4,470 nucleotides of DNA from a virus (lineage: Duplodnaviria; Heunggongvirae; Uroviricota; Caudoviricetes): positions 1-4,470 of the IMG/VR virus record IMGVR_UViG_2531839474_000005; one strand, written 5' to 3'. Below, in pieces: positions 1 to 4,470 of this stretch. Positions within the stretch are counted from its first letter, which is position 1; each line of letters begins with the position of its first letter. Made by a program: the position numbers and the translations under genes. The notes under the pieces are model-generated. The model ran no database searches. It worked only from the letters and a program-made list of their open reading frames with translations, and had not been told where the DNA came from.

Positions 1-1
1 G

Positions 2-643
2 CGACTGGCTAAGGTGAAGGATCTGACGCCGGGCGAGATGACGGCAGAACCCTACGATGATAACTACCTGGATGATGAAGACGCGGACTGGACCGCGACC
101 GGGCAGGGGCAGAAGTCTGCAGGAGATACCAGTTTTACGCTGGCCTGGAAACCGGGAGAAGAAGGTCAGAAAGGGCTTATAGGCTGGTTTGAAAGCGGGG
201 ATGTGCGGGCCTATAAAATCCGTTTCCCAAACGGCACGGTGGATGTGTTCCGTGGCTGGGTCAGCAGTATCGGTAAGGCCGTGACGGCGAAAGAAGTGAT
301 CACCCGCACGGTGAAAGTGACCAACGTGGGCAAACCTTCTGTAGCGGAAGAACGCAGCAAAATTACGCCGGTCACTGCGATTAAGGTGACGCCGACATCC
401 GGTACGGTGGCAAAAGGGAAAACAACCACCCTGACGGTTTCTTTTGAGCCGGAAAGTGCAACCGACAAGACGTTCAGAGCGGTTTCCGCCGATCCGTCGA
501 AAGCCACCATTAGTGTGAAAGATATGACAATTACGGTAAACGGCGTGGCGACAGGTAAGGTGCAGATCCCTGTGGTGAGCGGAAATGGTCAGTTCGCCGC
601 AGTGGCTGAAGTCACCGTTACTGAAGCGGGCGCTGCAGGGTAA
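2..643 (+). CDS. V: Major tail tube protein (lambda gpV-like), 5'-truncated by the window edge; C-terminal Ig-like domain
   Basis: Frame is open from position 2 ([12 protein letters not shown]...) to TAA at 641-643, so the true start lies upstream; the ORF-track Met at 14 is internal. The translation ([26 protein letters not shown]...[41 protein letters not shown]...) closely matches my recollection of the C-terminal two thirds of lambda gpV. Position immediately upstream of G/T/H/M fits lambda gene order. Confidence 0.92.
362..640 (+). other. C-terminal Ig-like (Big_2-type) domain of the major tail protein
   Basis: Segment [87 protein letters not shown] has the alternating beta-strand pattern and T/V/S richness typical of bacterial Ig-like domains. 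Lambda gpV is known to carry such a non-essential C-terminal domain. Boundaries are approximate. Confidence 0.7.
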
Positions 644-645
644 AC

Positions 646-650
646 GGAGG
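646..650 (+). promoter_or_regulatory. Shine-Dalgarno (GGAGG) for G
   Basis: GGAGG sits 6 nt upstream of the ATG at 657. Confidence 0.7.
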
Positions 651-656
651 TAATAC

Positions 657-1088
657 ATGTTTCTGAAAACAGAACAATTTGAATATAACGGTGTGTCCGT
701 CACGCTTTCCGAATTGTCTGCGCTGCAGCGTATTGAGCATCTTGCCCTCCTGAAACGGCGTGCAGAACAGGCAGAATCCAGCGGCAACCTGCAGGTAAGC
801 GTGGAAGATCTCGTCAGAACCGGCGCGTTTCTGGTGGCGATGTCCCTGTGGCATAACCATCCGCAGAAAACGGCATCACCGTCAATGAATGAGGCTGTGA
901 TGCAGATCGAACAGGAGGTGCTCACCACCTGGCCTGCGGATGCCATTGCCCGGGCGGAAGACGTGGTGTTGCGTCTGTCCGGGATGAGCGGGGCTGTTCA
1001 TGTGGATACGGATATCACCGAAGTGGCGAAAAATAACGCGCTTACTGATGATGATTTTTCTGCGGGAAAGTCTTCGACGGCGAGCTGA
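657..1088 (+). CDS. G: Tail assembly chaperone (lambda gpG-like)
   Basis: ATG at 657 with SD upstream; 143 aa; TGA at 1086-1088. Translation MFLKTEQFEYNGVSVTLSELSALQRIEHLALLKRRAEQAE...AFLVAMSLWHNHPQKT...MNEAVMQIEQEVLTTWP...VVLRLSGM closely matches lambda gpG as I recall it. Contains the slippery heptamer near its 3' end. Confidence 0.93.
   Translation: MFLKTEQFEYNGVSVTLSELSALQRIEHLALLKRRAEQAESSGNLQVSVEDLVRTGAFLVAMSLWHNHPQKTASPSMNEAVMQIEQEVLTTWPADAIARAEDVVLRLSGMSGAVHVDTDITEVAKNNALTDDDFSAGKSSTAS
1064..1070 (+). promoter_or_regulatory. Programmed -1 ribosomal frameshift slippery heptamer G GGA AAG (G to G-T recoding site)
   Basis: GGGAAAG at 1064-1070 lies in the G zero frame as GCG GGA AAG (..SAGK..). 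A -1 slip gives GGG AAA GTC TTC GAC GGC GAG CTG AAT TTT..., i.e. GKVFDGELNFALRLAREMGRPDW, which runs open into the T frame. This is the same heptamer and junction peptide known for the lambda G/GT frameshift. Confidence 0.88.
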
Positions 1089-1528
1089 ATTTTGCCCTCA
1101 GACTGGCGCGTGAGATGGGGAGGCCTGACTGGCGCGCCATGCTTGCCGGGATGACATCCACCGAATATGCCGACTGGCGACATTTTTACCGTACGCATTA
1201 TTTTCTCGATACCCAACTGGATATGCATTTTTCCGGGCTGACGTACGCCGTACTCAGCCTGTTTTTTGGCGATCCGGATATGCATCCGGCGGATTTCAGT
1301 CTGCTTGCTCCAGCGTGTGAGGAAGAGCAGACGGAGATGCCGGACGAGGAAGAAATGCTGATGCAGAAAGCGACAGGAGTTGCCGGAGGCGTCCGGTTCG
1401 GAGGGGACGGAGGGCGCGATATTTCACCTTCTGCGGATGTGGTGGATGTCAGCGAGGATGATGTTGCATTAATGATGGCTTCAGCGGGGATTTCCGGAGG
1501 TGTGAGATATGTCCCAGCCAGCGGGTGA
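1064..1528 (+). CDS. T: T portion of the G-T tail assembly chaperone fusion (made as 657..1069 joined to 1069..1528 by -1 frameshift)
   Basis: The -1 frame relative to G is open from the slippery site to TGA at 1526-1528. Translation ...GRPDWRAMLAGMTSTEYADWRHFYRTHYF.DTQLDMHFSGLTYAVLSLFFGDPDMHP.DFSLL...GGVRFG...GGVRY matches lambda gpT as recalled. The ORF-track Met at 1115 has no convincing SD and is probably not an independent start; some pipelines would still annotate T as 1115..1528. Confidence 0.88.
   Translation, partial: GKVFDGELNFALRLAREMGRPDWRAMLAGMTSTEYADWRHFYRTHYFLDTQLDMHFSGLTYAVLSLFFGDPDMHPADFSLLAPACEEEQTEMPDEEEMLMQKATGVAGGVRFGGDGGRDISPSADVVDVSEDDVALMMASAGISGGVRYVPASG
1496..1500 (+). 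promoter_or_regulatory. Shine-Dalgarno (GGAGG) for H
   Basis: GGAGG sits 8 nt upstream of the ATG at 1509, inside the 3' end of the T frame. Confidence 0.65.
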
Positions 1529-4121
1529 TCTGGTTATTGATTTGAGTCTGGATGCGGCCCGGTTTGATGAACAGATGGCCCGGGTACGCCGTCATTTTTC
1601 CAGTCTGGAGGCGGATGCCAGAAAAACCGCCAGTACTGTTGAACAGGGGCTGAGCCGACAGGCGCTGGCTGCACAAAAAGCCGGGATATCAGTCGGACAG
1701 TATAAGGCTGCCATGCGCACACTGCCCGCACAGTTCACGGATATTGTCACTCAGCTTGCCGGTGGTCAGAATCCCTTCCTTATCATGCTGCAGCAGGGGG
1801 GGCAGATCAGCGATTCATTCGGTGGACCGCTCAGCCTGCTTACCCTGCTGAAGGAGGAACTTCTCGGGATCAGGGATGCCTCTGAATCATCAGAGGAGTC
1901 GCTGTCAGATACGGCAAATGCACTGGCTGAAAATGCCCGGAATGCCGGTGAGCTGGGACGATTTATGTCGGTGGCCCGTGTGGCGGCAGGTGGCGGGGTT
2001 GCCGTACTGGCCGCGCTTGCTGCCGCCGCCTGGCAGGCAGAGCAGGCTGACCGGGCCTTATTGCGTTCACTGATCCTGACCGGAGGGGCGGCTGCCACCA
2101 CAACGGCAGAATTGTGGAAAATGGCCGGGGTGATCAGCGATGAAGCCGGTGGTGGTATCAGACAGGCGGCAGAAAATCTGGCCCGTCTGGCAGAAAGCGG
2201 GAAATATACCGCCGGGCAGCTACGGATCATGGGGGAAACCTCTCAGAGATGGCTGCAGACGGTGGGGGACGATGCCGGGAAGGTGGAAAAAGCCTTTGAA
2301 GGGATTGCAGCAGATCCGGTGAAGGCGCTGGCCTCCCTGAATCAGCAGTATAACTTCCTGAGCGTTTCCCAGTTACGCCATATTGATGAGCTTGAGCGCA
2401 CGAAAGGTAAACAGGCTGCGGTGACGGAGGCGATGTCCCTGTTTGCGGATGTCATGAATGCACGTCTGGAGCAACTTGATAAAGCGGCCACGCCGGTGGA
2501 AAAAATCTGGGACGATGTTAAAACCTGGACTTCTGACGCATGGGCATGGATAGGTGATCATACACTGGGGGCACTCAGTCTGATCACTGACGTGGTGGCC
2601 GGAACCGTTGAACAAGTGAAGCTGCTGCTTGTGCAGGGGGATCTGGCGCTGGCTGAATTTATTCAGTCAGCCTGGGAAACGACAAAGAATGTGCCCGGCG
2701 TTGGTGCGTTGTTTGGTGAACTGGCAGAAGAGAACCGCGTATTTATTGAGAAAACAAAACGCGATGAACTGGCGCTGAGAAAATCCATTGCGGAACGGGA
2801 TGCGCGTATACGCCAGGGGGAAATGGGGTACATCAACCGCTCGCGTGCAACAGGCGTCAGCAAAGGTCCTGGGCAGCAGGAAGCCGTCAGCCGTCTGGCT
2901 GAAGAGCTGACAGGTAAAAAGCATACATCACCGAAAACGCGCTCTGCCGGGGAGAGGGAAGAGGAGCAGGCAAGAGAGGCTCTGCTTGCCCTTGAAGCTG
3001 AGCTCAGGACGCTGGAAAAACACAGCGGTGCGAATGAGAAAATCAGTCGGCAGCGCCGTGATTTATGGAAGGCGGAAAGTCAGTATGCGGTCCTGAAAGA
3101 GGCTGCCACGAAACGGCAGTTATCCTGGCAGGAAAAATCCCTGCTGGCCCATGAGAAAGAGACGCTGGAGTACAAACGCCAGCTGGCTGAGCTGGGAGAC
3201 AAAGTTGAACACCAGAAACGGCTGAATGAGCTGGCACAGCAGGCGGTGCGGTTTGAAGAGCAGCAGAGCGCGAAGCAGGCCGCCATCAGCGCAAAAGCCC
3301 GCGGTCTCACTGACCGTCAGGCGCAGCGGGAGTCTGAAGCGCAGCGTCTTCGGGACGTGTACGGTGATAATCCGCAGGCGCTGGCCCGGGTCACCGGGGC
3401 ACTGAAACAGACATGGGCGGATGAAGACATGCTGCGCGGTGACTGGCTGGCCGGGCTGAAGTCCGGCTGGGGGGAGTGGGCGGAAAGTGCGACGGACAGT
3501 TTTTCGCAGGTTAAAAGCGCGGCCACGCAGACCTTTGACGGTATTGCACAGAATATGGCAGCGATGCTGACCGGCAGCGAACAGAACTGGCGTGGTTTCA
3601 CCCGTTCTGTGCTCTCCATGCTGACAGAGATTTTTCTGAAGCAGGCGATGGTGGGGATAGTCGGGAGTATCGGCAGCGCCATTGGCGGTGCTTTCGGTGG
3701 TGGTGCGTCTGCCTCCACGGGGACGGCCATTCAGGCTGCGGCGGCGAACTTCCATTTCGCGACCGGGGGATTTACGGGAACCGGCGGCAAATATGAGCCA
3801 GCGGGGATTGTTCACCGTGGTGAATTTGTCTTCACGAAGGAGGCAACCAGCCGGATTGGTGTCGGCAACCTGTACCGCCTGATGCGGGGCTATGCGGAAG
3901 GTGGTTATGTGGGCGGTGCCGGAAGTCCGGCGCAGATGCGGCGGGCTGAAGGCATTAATTTTAATCAGAACAATCACGTGGTGATTCAGAACGACGGTAC
4001 GAATGGTCTGCCAGGTCCACAGATGATGAAGGCAGTGTATGACATGGCCCGCAAGGGTGCCCGTGATGAAATCCAGGCACAGATGCGCGATGGTGGCCTG
4101 TTCTCCGGAGGTGGACGATGA
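1509..4121 (+). CDS. H: Tail tape measure protein (lambda gpH-like), 870 aa
   Basis: ATG at 1509 with SD; TGA at 4119-4121. N-terminus (GDLVIDLSLDAARFDEQMARVRRHFS...ISVGQYKAAMRTLPAQFTD..LAGGQ) and C-terminal ~390 aa (ELRTLEKHSGANEKISRQRRDLWKAESQ ... SVKSAATQTFDGIAQNMAAMLTGSEQNWR ... KYEPAGIVHRGEFVFTKEATSRIGVGNLYRLMRGYA ... KAVYDMARKGARDEIQAQMRDGGLFSGGGR) closely match lambda gpH as recalled. Large size, Ala/Gln/Glu-rich helical composition and position between G-T and M are typical of tape measure proteins. Confidence 0.95.
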   Translation: MSQPAGDLVIDLSLDAARFDEQMARVRRHFSSLEADARKTASTVEQGLSRQALAAQKAGISVGQYKAAMRTLPAQFTDIVTQLAGGQNPFLIMLQQGGQISDSFGGPLSLLTLLKEELLGIRDASESSEESLSDTANALAENARNAGELGRFMSVARVAAGGGVAVLAALAAAAWQAEQADRALLRSLILTGGAAATTTAELWKMAGVISDEAGGGIRQAAENLARLAESGKYTAGQLRIMGETSQRWLQTVGDDAGKVEKAFEGIAADPVKALASLNQQYNFLSVSQLRHIDELERTKGKQAAVTEAMSLFADVMNARLEQLDKAATPVEKIWDDVKTWTSDAWAWIGDHTLGALSLITDVVAGTVEQVKLLLVQGDLALAEFIQSAWETTKNVPGVGALFGELAEENRVFIEKTKRDELALRKSIAERDARIRQGEMGYINRSRATGVSKGPGQQEAVSRLAEELTGKKHTSPKTRSAGEREEEQAREALLALEAELRTLEKHSGANEKISRQRRDLWKAESQYAVLKEAATKRQLSWQEKSLLAHEKETLEYKRQLAELGDKVEHQKRLNELAQQAVRFEEQQSAKQAAISAKARGLTDRQAQRESEAQRLRDVYGDNPQALARVTGALKQTWADEDMLRGDWLAGLKSGWGEWAESATDSFSQVKSAATQTFDGIAQNMAAMLTGSEQNWRGFTRSVLSMLTEIFLKQAMVGIVGSIGSAIGGAFGGGASASTGTAIQAAAANFHFATGGFTGTGGKYEPAGIVHRGEFVFTKEATSRIGVGNLYRLMRGYAEGGYVGGAGSPAQMRRAEGINFNQNNHVVIQNDGTNGLPGPQMMKAVYDMARKGARDEIQAQMRDGGLFSGGGR
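4107..4111 (+). promoter_or_regulatory. Shine-Dalgarno (GGAGG) for M
   Basis: GGAGG sits 6 nt upstream of the ATG at 4118, within the last codons of H. Confidence 0.65.
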
Positions 4122-4447
4122 AAACCTTCCGCTGGAAAGTGAAACCCGGTATGGATGTGGCTTCGGCCCCTTCTGTAAGAAAGGTGCGCTTTGGTGATGG
4201 CTATTCCCAGCGAGCGCCTGCCGGGCTGAATGCCAACCTGAAAACGTACAGCGTGACGCTGTCTGTCTCCCGTGAGGAGGCCACGGCGCTGGAGTCGTTT
4301 CTGGCTGAGCACGGGGGCTGGAAGGCCTTTCTGTGGACGCCGCCTTATGGTTACAGGCAGATAAAGGTGACCTGCGCAAAATGGTCGTCGCGGGTCAGTA
4401 TGCTGCGTGTTGAGTTCAGCGCAGAGTTTGAACAGGTGGTGAACTGA
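4118..4447 (+). CDS. M: Minor tail protein M (lambda gpM-like), 109 aa
   Basis: ATG at 4118 overlaps the H stop (ATGA); TGA at 4445-4447. Translation MKTFRWKVKPGMDVAS.PSVRKVRFGDGYSQRAPAGLNANLKTYSVTLSV.REEAT.LESFL.EHGGWK.FLWTPPY..RQIKVTC.KWSSRVSMLRVEFSAEFEQVVN is near-identical to lambda gpM as recalled. Confidence 0.95.
   Translation: MKTFRWKVKPGMDVASAPSVRKVRFGDGYSQRAPAGLNANLKTYSVTLSVSREEATALESFLAEHGGWKAFLWTPPYGYRQIKVTCAKWSSRVSMLRVEFSAEFEQVVN
4434..4439 (+). promoter_or_regulatory. Shine-Dalgarno-like (AGGTGG) for L
   Basis: AGGTGG sits 7 nt upstream of the ATG at 4447. Confidence 0.55.
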
Positions 4448-4470
4448 TGCAGGATATCCGGCAGGAAACA
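4447..4470 (+). CDS. L: Minor tail protein L (lambda gpL-like), 3'-truncated by the window edge (first 8 codons only)
   Basis: ATG at 4447 overlaps the M stop (TGATG). Translation MQDIRQET matches the N-terminus of lambda gpL as recalled, and the position after M fits lambda gene order. Only 24 nt are visible. Confidence 0.75.

Follow-up and report, generated by a model that had tools for sequence, protein, structure and literature searches.

The gene analyzed here is related to the one encoding gpH, the tape measure protein (TMP) of phage lambda, for which a model of action is available (PMC12617516; PMC5009743). gpH* forms a trans-envelope channel, with amino acids (aa) 116-140 as a candidate transmembrane segment, and gpH aa 818-849 bind gpI in the tail tip (PMC12617516). 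ManZ proximity-labels gpH during injection, the gpH substitution A304V permits infection of delta-manYZ cells, and PhiR68.2, a natural variant with differences in gpH aa 300-400, does not depend on ManYZ; moreover, the clade to which a TMP belongs correlates with the use of ManYZ and with how susceptible the phage is to the nuclease SNIPE (preprint 10.1101/2025.11.03.685801). DicB of the Qin prophage blocks ManYZ-dependent phages (PMC6832061). The window analyzed here, a stretch of 4470 nucleotides (nt; positions 1 to 4,470 of IMG/VR record IMGVR_UViG_2531839474_000005), is a lambda-type tail-assembly block with the gene order V-G-T-H-M on the + strand and originates from a lambda-like Escherichia coli prophage. 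Its H gene very probably encodes a functional lambda-family TMP that is an intragenic mosaic, in which ends of the lambda lineage flank a centre from another TMP lineage, joined by recombination at two motifs, with a single origin and with the ruler function retained.

We compared H with lambda gpH (NC_001416 10542-13103; NP_040595) using BLASTP and HMMER. The match falls into three parts, strong at H aa 1-110 (175 bits), weak at aa 160-309 (29 bits; 24% identity and E=2e-10 when the centres alone are compared) and strong again at aa 470-870 (657 bits). Amino acid identity to lambda is 81% over aa 1-58 and 83% over aa 59-106, drops to 23% over aa 148-295 and 13% over aa 296-477, and returns to 71%, 92% and 73% over aa 478-640, 641-800 and 801-870 (83% over aa 495-800). 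In 60- to 90-nt bins, nucleotide identity is 72-80% up to position ~1800. Between ~1809 and ~2950 it falls to 27-47% and gaps are frequent, and further on it is 57-100%, with the lambda-type ends going down to 47-65% in some bins. The discontinuity is far beyond chance because it is 1.1 kb long and more than 600 complete genomes show it in the same form. Pairwise alignment and binned identities locate breakpoints and show neither uniform identity nor uniform divergence; the uniform high similarity of a whole-length lambda-clade gpH allele is missing, as aa 107-477 are 13-23% identical to lambda and group with P0030, a long TMP described below.

These data confirm an earlier note, made from the sequence alone, which had described H as mosaic between positions 1825 and 2970: the three peptides that it quoted lie in the 870-aa open reading frame (ORF), and its boundaries agree within ~30 nt with those of our codon alignment (~1794-1826 and ~2940-2990). 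The same note overstated the case in calling the termini near-identical to lambda, given the identities of 81-83% at the N-terminus and of 71%, 92% and 73% in the C-terminal sub-segments. Its statement that the centre is unlike lambda holds for the identity of aa 107-477, but the first half of this block is still a TMP_2 domain (aa 147-293, 24% identical).

Profile searches place H in the lambda TMP family. The protein matches Pfam TMP_2 (PF06791) with 157.7 bits (cut-off 30.2), the match being split in two by a 41-aa insert, PF09718 with 75.4 bits (cut-off 23) and TIGR01541 with 364.8 bits over aa 489-830 (cut-off 104.75). At the C-terminus, the sequence of aa 836-866 matches the resolved lambda gpH C-terminal peptide 9E7M_Ha (E=1.4e-10). 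The conservation of this peptide, which corresponds to the gpI-binding region of lambda gpH (aa 818-849; PMC12617516), agrees with the proposal of the note that engagement of the tail tip keeps the C-terminus conserved.

The central module resembles other TMPs more closely than it does gpH: segment by segment, it is 54-67% identical to Klebsiella-type TMPs and 35-47% identical to the TMP of the T1-like phage IsaakIselin. Its nearest relatives are long TMPs of 1056-1119 aa, which are 53-59% identical over aa 148-477 and share an acidic insert. They come from Klebsiella, Pluralibacter, Leclercia and an Escherichia species and lie in G-T-TMP-M-L-K-I-J clusters of the lambda-like kind that are related to temperate phages of Klebsiella. 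Like these proteins, window H has the insert KEELLG..SESLS.NANAL.ENA after the QQGGQISDSFGG motif and before a W-rich motif. The 41-aa insert is 49-61% identical to those of the Klebsiella-type P0016 and P0019 and is absent from lambda, phi21, PhiR12 and IsaakIselin. Outside the centre the resemblance to the long TMPs ends: the 195-290-aa N-terminal extension that precedes their GxSxGQY motif and their family C-terminal half are both absent, the motif starting at aa 59 as in lambda and the C-terminal half being 42-43% identical to the long-TMP family and 83% identical to lambda.

Searching our phage collection with tblastn returned centres that are either at least 99% identical (21 Shiga toxin (Stx) phage records of the Stx1 and Stx2 types, including VT1-Sakai, CP-1639 and ASU11) or less than 46% identical, the latter mostly from T1-like virulent phages (Drexlerviridae). 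The best relative of the centre in the PDB is the phage T1 TMP (9L9P_B, E=3e-67, as compared with E=6e-7 for lambda gpH). Twenty records labeled as Campylobacter phages (for example MG065671, phage A120) contain a T1-like TMP ~45% identical to the central block, as do Citrobacter, Salmonella and E. coli Drexlerviridae; the host label looks doubtful.

A four-taxon distance analysis of each segment, with 1000 column bootstraps, supports recombination. The window groups with lambda over aa 59-106 (968 of 1000 replicates), with P0030 over aa 148-477 (998) and with lambda again over aa 495-800 (all 1000). Furthermore, PhiR12_2_star has a lambda-type centre between flanks that are 80-100% identical to those of the window, and no intermediates between the two classes of centre were found in the phage collection or in E. 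coli genomes. Divergence in place, with the centre evolving faster than the ends, would fit the generally lower conservation of TMP centres and the still detectable homology of the first half of the block to lambda. It does not account for the fall of nucleotide identity from ~80% to background within ~30 nt at both ends, for a centre that groups with another family and shares its 41-aa insert, or for the lambda-type centre of PhiR12 between window-like flanks. Taken together, the incongruence of the segments, the sharp boundaries, PhiR12_2_star and the lack of intermediates exclude this explanation, to which we assign only a very small residual probability.

Codon alignment positions both crossovers precisely. 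On the left, aa 86-95 are still lambda-type (80% versus 47%), the I-S codons of the motif (ATC AGC) match the Klebsiella type exactly where lambda has GTG AAG, and from aa 107 on only the Klebsiella type aligns; this junction lies inside Pfam TMP_2, at profile position ~63/64. On the right, nucleotide identity to the lambda-type PhiR12 climbs from 40% to 60%, 73%, 80% and 87% over aa 470-519. Each of the two crossovers falls on a motif shared by all families examined, QQGGQ[IV][SK]DSFGG and SAGxR...L.AxLRTL..H. Homologous recombination at islands of similarity would produce such positions, and so would selection for junctions that work.

We propose that the N-terminal ~100 and C-terminal ~380 residues of H derive from the lambda lineage and that the central ~370 residues come from a TMP lineage nearest to the long TMPs of temperate phages of Klebsiella and other Enterobacteriaceae and, at a greater distance, to T1-like virulent phages. 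The chimera would have arisen through recombination at the stretches coding for QQGGQxxDSFGG and SAGxR...LxxLRTLxxH. It would have formed once and would spread among E. coli lambdoid prophages, many Stx phages included, by homologous recombination in the lambda-type flanks. The swap is position-for-position, 371 aa replacing 354, and this near-equal length would leave the ruler function and the tail length almost unchanged. TMPs act as rulers at ~1.5 Å per residue. For H (870 aa) and lambda gpH (853 aa), the predicted difference in tail length is ~2.5 nm, less than one gpV ring.

The content of the central module is that of a TMP throughout. Its TMP_2 part (aa 147-293) corresponds to the distal two-thirds of the domain and includes a hydrophobic segment (aa 152-177) whose counterpart in lambda, aa 113-138, is the stretch put forward as a possible transmembrane domain of gpH* (PMC12617516). 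In the distal half of the block (aa ~296-477), similarity to lambda is not detectable, and lambda aa ~300-450 have no counterpart in window H. An alternative would be that the block was inserted as a foreign element or contains an enzymatic domain; a mobile element, a lysin domain and the variable region of a diversity-generating retroelement (DGR) are examples. Some TMPs, for example in mycobacteriophages, do have peptidoglycan hydrolase motifs (PMC1796659). Sequence searches of Pfam, PHROGs, NCBIfam and the PDB detected no embedded enzymatic or mobile domain and gave TMP families only, with TMP_2 as the sole Pfam match and no NCBIfam match in the centre; the profile searches suggested in the earlier note for an embedded domain thus had a negative outcome. 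An AlphaFold2 model of the centre, of low confidence (mean predicted local distance difference test score 50.7) and used for secondary structure alone, is all-helical. A search for direct repeats, inverted repeats and tandem arrays gave nothing meaningful, which excludes a DGR-like mechanism and internal duplication. As the block also replaces lambda sequence and adds nothing, we consider an inserted element or domain exceedingly improbable, even more so than divergence in place.

We next turned to the distribution of the two centres in 5426 complete E. coli genomes. The window-type centre is present in 639 of these genomes, at 1442 places and in up to 5 copies per genome, and 628 of 641 records show an identity of at least 99%; the lambda-type centre is present in 3717 genomes, at 6822 places and in up to 7 copies per genome, with 80-100% identity. 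Among carriers of the window-type centre, the stretch between ~aa 55 and ~aa 520, both junctions included, is 97-100% identical at the nucleotide level, and the outer flanks are patchy (47-100%). The uniform core within patchy flanks suggests a single ancestral chimera that homologous recombination carried into different backgrounds.

The quartets, the sharp boundaries and the location of the relatives in lambda-like tail clusters bear out the suggestion of the note that H recombined with a different lambdoid phage; they are compatible with either direction, and the lambda centre is itself an outlier. Indeed, the exchange could have run the other way, with the window-type H ancestral and colinear and the lambda-type centre, especially lambda aa ~300-450, swapped in. 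Window H is contiguous with the TMPs of both other families (aa 59-796 with IsaakIselin; aa 56-808, acidic insert included, with P0030), whereas lambda gpH matches IsaakIselin in two blocks only, with aa ~300-450 unmatched. Several observations weigh against an import of the window centre. The lambda centre is 15-22% identical to every other family, as compared with 42-62% among those families, and the lambda-type allele may be the derived one. The GC content of the block (56.8%) lies within that of the flanks (56-59%), and neither GC nor GC at third codon positions sets it apart. Finally, neither the phage collection nor 5.8 billion protein clusters, 1.84 billion representatives or the species-representative genomes yielded a donor above 58% identity. 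Either the event is therefore old or the source has escaped sampling, and these data fit both directions of exchange.

Between 60% and 95% identity, the range in which a donor was sought, the phage tblastn search was empty (from 46% to 99%), an exhaustive search of representatives reached at most 55%, an exact-peptide scan of the species-representative genomes found nothing and a profile scan of them reached at most 58%; in a word-indexed protein search, identical fragments from E. coli crowded out other matches. One apparent match of 72%, P0015, was rejected as a donor, because it consists of an identical N-terminal part followed by unrelated sequence and is probably an assembly or frameshift artefact. 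The closest donor-like TMP, in a Logan contig (L014:988-4157), is divided into two ORFs of 534 and 530 aa that jointly correspond to the 1056-aa P0030, owing to a frameshift or sequencing error in that assembly.

Two lines of evidence oppose the reversed direction. The window centre is nearer to P0030 (55%) than the window C-terminus is (42%), and the T1-like outgroup shows no such excess (45% versus 46%), which suggests that the window centre joined lambda-type ends after the lineages had split. In addition, the near-invariance of the window-type centre in E. coli, as compared with the 80-100% range of the lambda type, fits a younger arrival; gene conversion among co-resident prophages could also homogenize it. 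Both centres may have been exchanged. On balance, the closeness of the window centre to the Klebsiella-type clade favours its import into a lambda-type backbone, and we regard the reversed direction as unlikely.

What the exchange means for infection can be approached through lambda. H should work as lambda gpH does, that is, be chaperoned by G and GT, set the length of the tail, anchor its C-terminus to gpI and be ejected as a trans-envelope channel. DNA entry depends on ManYZ in lambda and 434, and the ManYZ determinants of lambda (A304 and aa 300-400) and the candidate transmembrane segment all fall within the replaced module. It is plausible, if less likely than not, that the exchange changes the inner-membrane step of DNA entry, or the sensitivity to defences acting there, as the module holds a transmembrane-like segment and the stretch that fixes ManYZ dependence in lambda. 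Going further, aa ~107-477 might constitute an exchangeable entry cassette that re-routes entry from ManYZ, or to another inner-membrane factor, and so escapes DicB and the ManYZ-associated nuclease SNIPE, the two allele classes reflecting selection; we put this forward tentatively and with more doubt than confidence. Two points count against these functional readings: the alignment that places lambda A304 at ~P329 of the window protein, at the start of the conserved motif of aa 328-378, lies in a region of low identity, and none of the phages of the PhiR panel carries a window-type centre.

We also asked whether the ManYZ-independence patch of PhiR68.2 is the same module as the window centre, and rejected this: the patch is smaller, unrelated and common to PhiR12. 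Within the patch (aa ~325-395), the H proteins of PhiR68_2 (L010:7122-9698) and PhiR12_2_star (L007:2009-4441) have similar sequences. The H gene of PhiR12_2_star is split into two coding sequences near its 3' end.

Alternatively, the exchange could be functionally neutral, with the TMP centre acting mainly as a helical spacer and the allele spreading by hitch-hiking and recombination between prophages. Length is kept within 17 aa, the centre is predicted to be all-helical, and the mosaic patches throughout the window (in G, at the 3' end of T with the 5' end of H, and at H aa 800-835) give the exchange the look of background shuffling. Internal in-frame deletions in lambda gpH lead to shorter but assembled tails. 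Against neutrality, the 51-aa motif is ~70% conserved between the prophage allele and virulent T1-like phages, which indicates that the centre is constrained; single changes or small patches in the equivalent region of lambda change ManYZ dependence; and the two allele classes are discrete, without intermediates. We consider a neutral exchange a real possibility, with somewhat less than an even chance.

Smaller exchanges are visible elsewhere in the window, which is a patchwork: relative to the otherwise ~100% identical CEC0003 it differs in a segment of G, and relative to CEC0019 in the 3' end of H. The G patch (nt 721-1080) is 39-56% identical to CEC0003, Stx1_9793 and VT1-Sakai, all otherwise ~100% identical nearby; its identity is 90-100% with CEC0019 and 89-92% with PhiR12_2_star. 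The G protein has 143 aa here and 140 aa in the other type. At nt 1351-1620 (the 3' end of T and H codons 1-40), VT1-Sakai, SCU-171 and Stx2_14040 have an alternative allele (42-58% nucleotide identity) in which the annotated T is shorter (309 nt) and H longer (881-882 aa), so that the replacement affects the C-terminus of T and the N-terminus of H jointly. The earlier note had attributed conservation of the H N-terminus to binding of G and G-T. This explanation is not supported, as G alleles assort independently of the H centre, the two types being found in all combinations, and H aa 1-40 are replaced in VT1-Sakai-type copies; moreover, a review reports binding of gpG to multiple regions along gpH (PMC5009743).

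Towards the 3' end, a small variable patch at nt 3871-4010 (H aa ~790-835) separates the conserved GGYVG motif from the predicted gpI-binding tail and belongs to the portion of gpH that cleavage removes as gpHC; it is 47-58% identical at the nucleotide level to lambda and CEC0019, and 93-100% identical to CEC0003, Stx phages and PhiR12. The last segment (nt 4051-4470, comprising M and the 3' end of H) has 92-100% identity to lambda and phage 21, as compared with 70-81% to the Stx phages with the same central block. This shift of affinity indicates another recombination boundary between nt ~3510 and ~4050.

The genes around H are those of a lambda-family tail (Table 1): ORFs, reading frames, the slippery site and annotated neighbours all agree with the order V-G-T (-1 frameshift)-H-M, and the annotations of lambda, VT1-Sakai, phage 21 and several E. 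coli prophages show this order too. In line with the G-T frameshift described for lambda (PMC5009743), T is read in the -1 frame with respect to G; its last 20 nt are shared with the start of H. The whole window is best matched by the chromosomes of chicken and other E. coli (96.8% identity over 100% of the window or 99.4% over 92%), along with Stx1 and Stx2 phages, and the H length of 2613 nt is identical in the CEC0003, CEC0019 and O104:H4 prophages. An antisense ORF of 419 aa (3120-4379, minus strand) lies opposite the C-terminal half of H and M. We do not interpret it as a gene, since its lambda counterpart is split into ORFs of 172, 221 and 270 aa, and it is most likely an artefact of GC-rich codon usage.

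Table 1. Features of the window and of the H protein. Nucleotide positions refer to the window and residue numbers to H.
Feature	Nucleotides	Residues	Strand	Basis and remarks
V (major tail protein), 3' part	1..643		+	ORF; aligned to V of lambda, VT1-Sakai and E. coli prophages; continues beyond left edge
G (tail assembly chaperone), 143 aa	657..1088		+	ORF; gpG annotation in 100%-matching CEC0019 prophage
GGGAAAG slippery heptamer, -1 frameshift for G-T fusion	1064..1070		+	exact motif, 19 nt upstream of G stop
T frame, C-terminal domain of G-T chaperone	1115..1528		+	ORF; tail assembly protein T annotation in matching prophages
H (tape measure), intact 870-aa ORF	1509..4121		+	ORF; TMP_2 and Tape_meas_lam_C; TIGR01541
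Lambda-type N-terminal module	1509..1805	1-99	+	81-83% aa identity to lambda; quartet of aa 59-106
Left crossover	~1794-1826		+	codon alignment; within codons of pan-family motif LQQGGQ-IS-DSFGG
Non-lambda central module	1827..2940	107-477	+	13-23% aa identity to lambda; quartet with P0030
Acidic Ser-rich insert, 41 aa, PLSLLTLLKEELLGIRDASESSEESLSDTANALAENARNAG	1827..1949	107-147	+	splits TMP_2 match; 8 acidic, 3 basic residues
Diverged distal TMP_2 part	1947..2387	147-293	+	PF06791 profile positions 64-208; 24% identity to lambda, E=2e-10
Hydrophobic transmembrane-like segment, VARVAAGGGVAVLAALAAAAW	1962..2039	152-177	+	Kyte-Doolittle 19-mer maximum 1.84
Best-conserved motif of window/Klebsiella/T1 centre family, TPVEKIWDDVKTWTSDAWAWIGDHTLGALSLITDVVAGTVEQVKLLLVQGD	2490..2642	328-378	+	alignments; invariant W, G and D columns
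Right crossover	~2940-2990		+	at conserved SAGER...ALLALEAELRTLEKH motif
Lambda-type C-terminal module	2991..4121	~495-870	+	83% identity over aa 495-800; quartet; Pfam and TIGR01541
Tape_meas_lam_C (part of C-terminal module)		644-718
Gly-rich hydrophobic stretch (part of C-terminal module)		700-731
Predicted gpI-binding tail (part of C-terminal module)		836-866
M (tail tip)	4118..4447		+	ORF; start overlaps H stop (ATGA); 92-100% nt identity to lambda and phi21 M

As a sequence feature, the mosaic is ordinary phage gene shuffling and matters little: roughly 12% of complete E. coli genomes carry the allele, annotated GenBank entries for it go back to VT1-Sakai, and lambdoid tail genes are well known to be mosaic internally. 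Our literature search found no explicit description of this H chimera or of its Klebsiella/T1 affinity; the original VT1-Sakai paper lay outside the search and may mention the divergence. The chimera is, however, a natural experiment in which lambda-type ends are kept and the part with the membrane-like segment and the residues linked to ManYZ and to an injection nuclease is replaced. The contrast between the two types of centre would bear on whether the TMP centre alone sets the entry route and the sensitivity to defences, and also on the entry of Stx phages. In genomes of Shiga toxin-producing E. coli, the near-identical 1.4-kb cassette, present in up to 5 copies per genome, is a likely substrate for recombination between prophages.

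Among known systems, lambda gpH (PDB 8IYK, 8IYL, 8K35 and 9E7M) is the reference for the ends of the protein. It shares with window H the V-G-T-H-M context, the G-T frameshift, TMP_2 and Tape_meas_lam_C, as well as the Gly-rich region and the C-terminal peptide that binds gpI in lambda. The window differs by its 41-aa acidic insert, another hydrophobic segment and another version of the A304 region. PhiR68.2 gpH (XSB43506) is likewise an intragenic H mosaic, one with a phenotypic consequence, and its variant patch lies inside the region replaced in the window; the patch is smaller (aa ~325-395) and unrelated to the window centre, and the remainder of the protein is 97-100% identical to lambda.

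For the centre, the closest counterparts are VT1-Sakai H (BAB19568, annotated as minor tail protein precursor H) and the H genes of 20 further Stx phage records, which have the same central block at 99.2-99.9% nucleotide identity, together with the prophage TMPs WP_053879360, WP_096935483 and WP_000081807. VT1-Sakai, SCU-171 and Stx2_14040 differ from the window in H aa 1-40 and the 3' end of T, with an H of 881-882 aa, and their C-terminal and M regions are 67-88% identical to the window, which is lambda/phi21-like there. More remotely, the long TMPs P0030 (1056 aa), P0031 (1119 aa) and P0016/P0018/P0019 (loci L014-L017), related to Klebsiella phage Kp4865-4, have a colinear centre, the acidic insert, the W-rich motif and the G-T-TMP-M-L-K-I-J synteny, but also 195-290 additional N-terminal residues and C-terminal halves that are 42-43% identical to that of the window. 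The IsaakIselin/Bas10 TMP (QXV80553, Drexlerviridae) is 41% identical overall and colinear over aa 59-796, with aa 296-378 highly conserved; T1-like TMPs of this kind belong to virulent phages, lack the acidic insert, have ~140 additional N-terminal residues and are 40-65% identical to the window protein at their ends.

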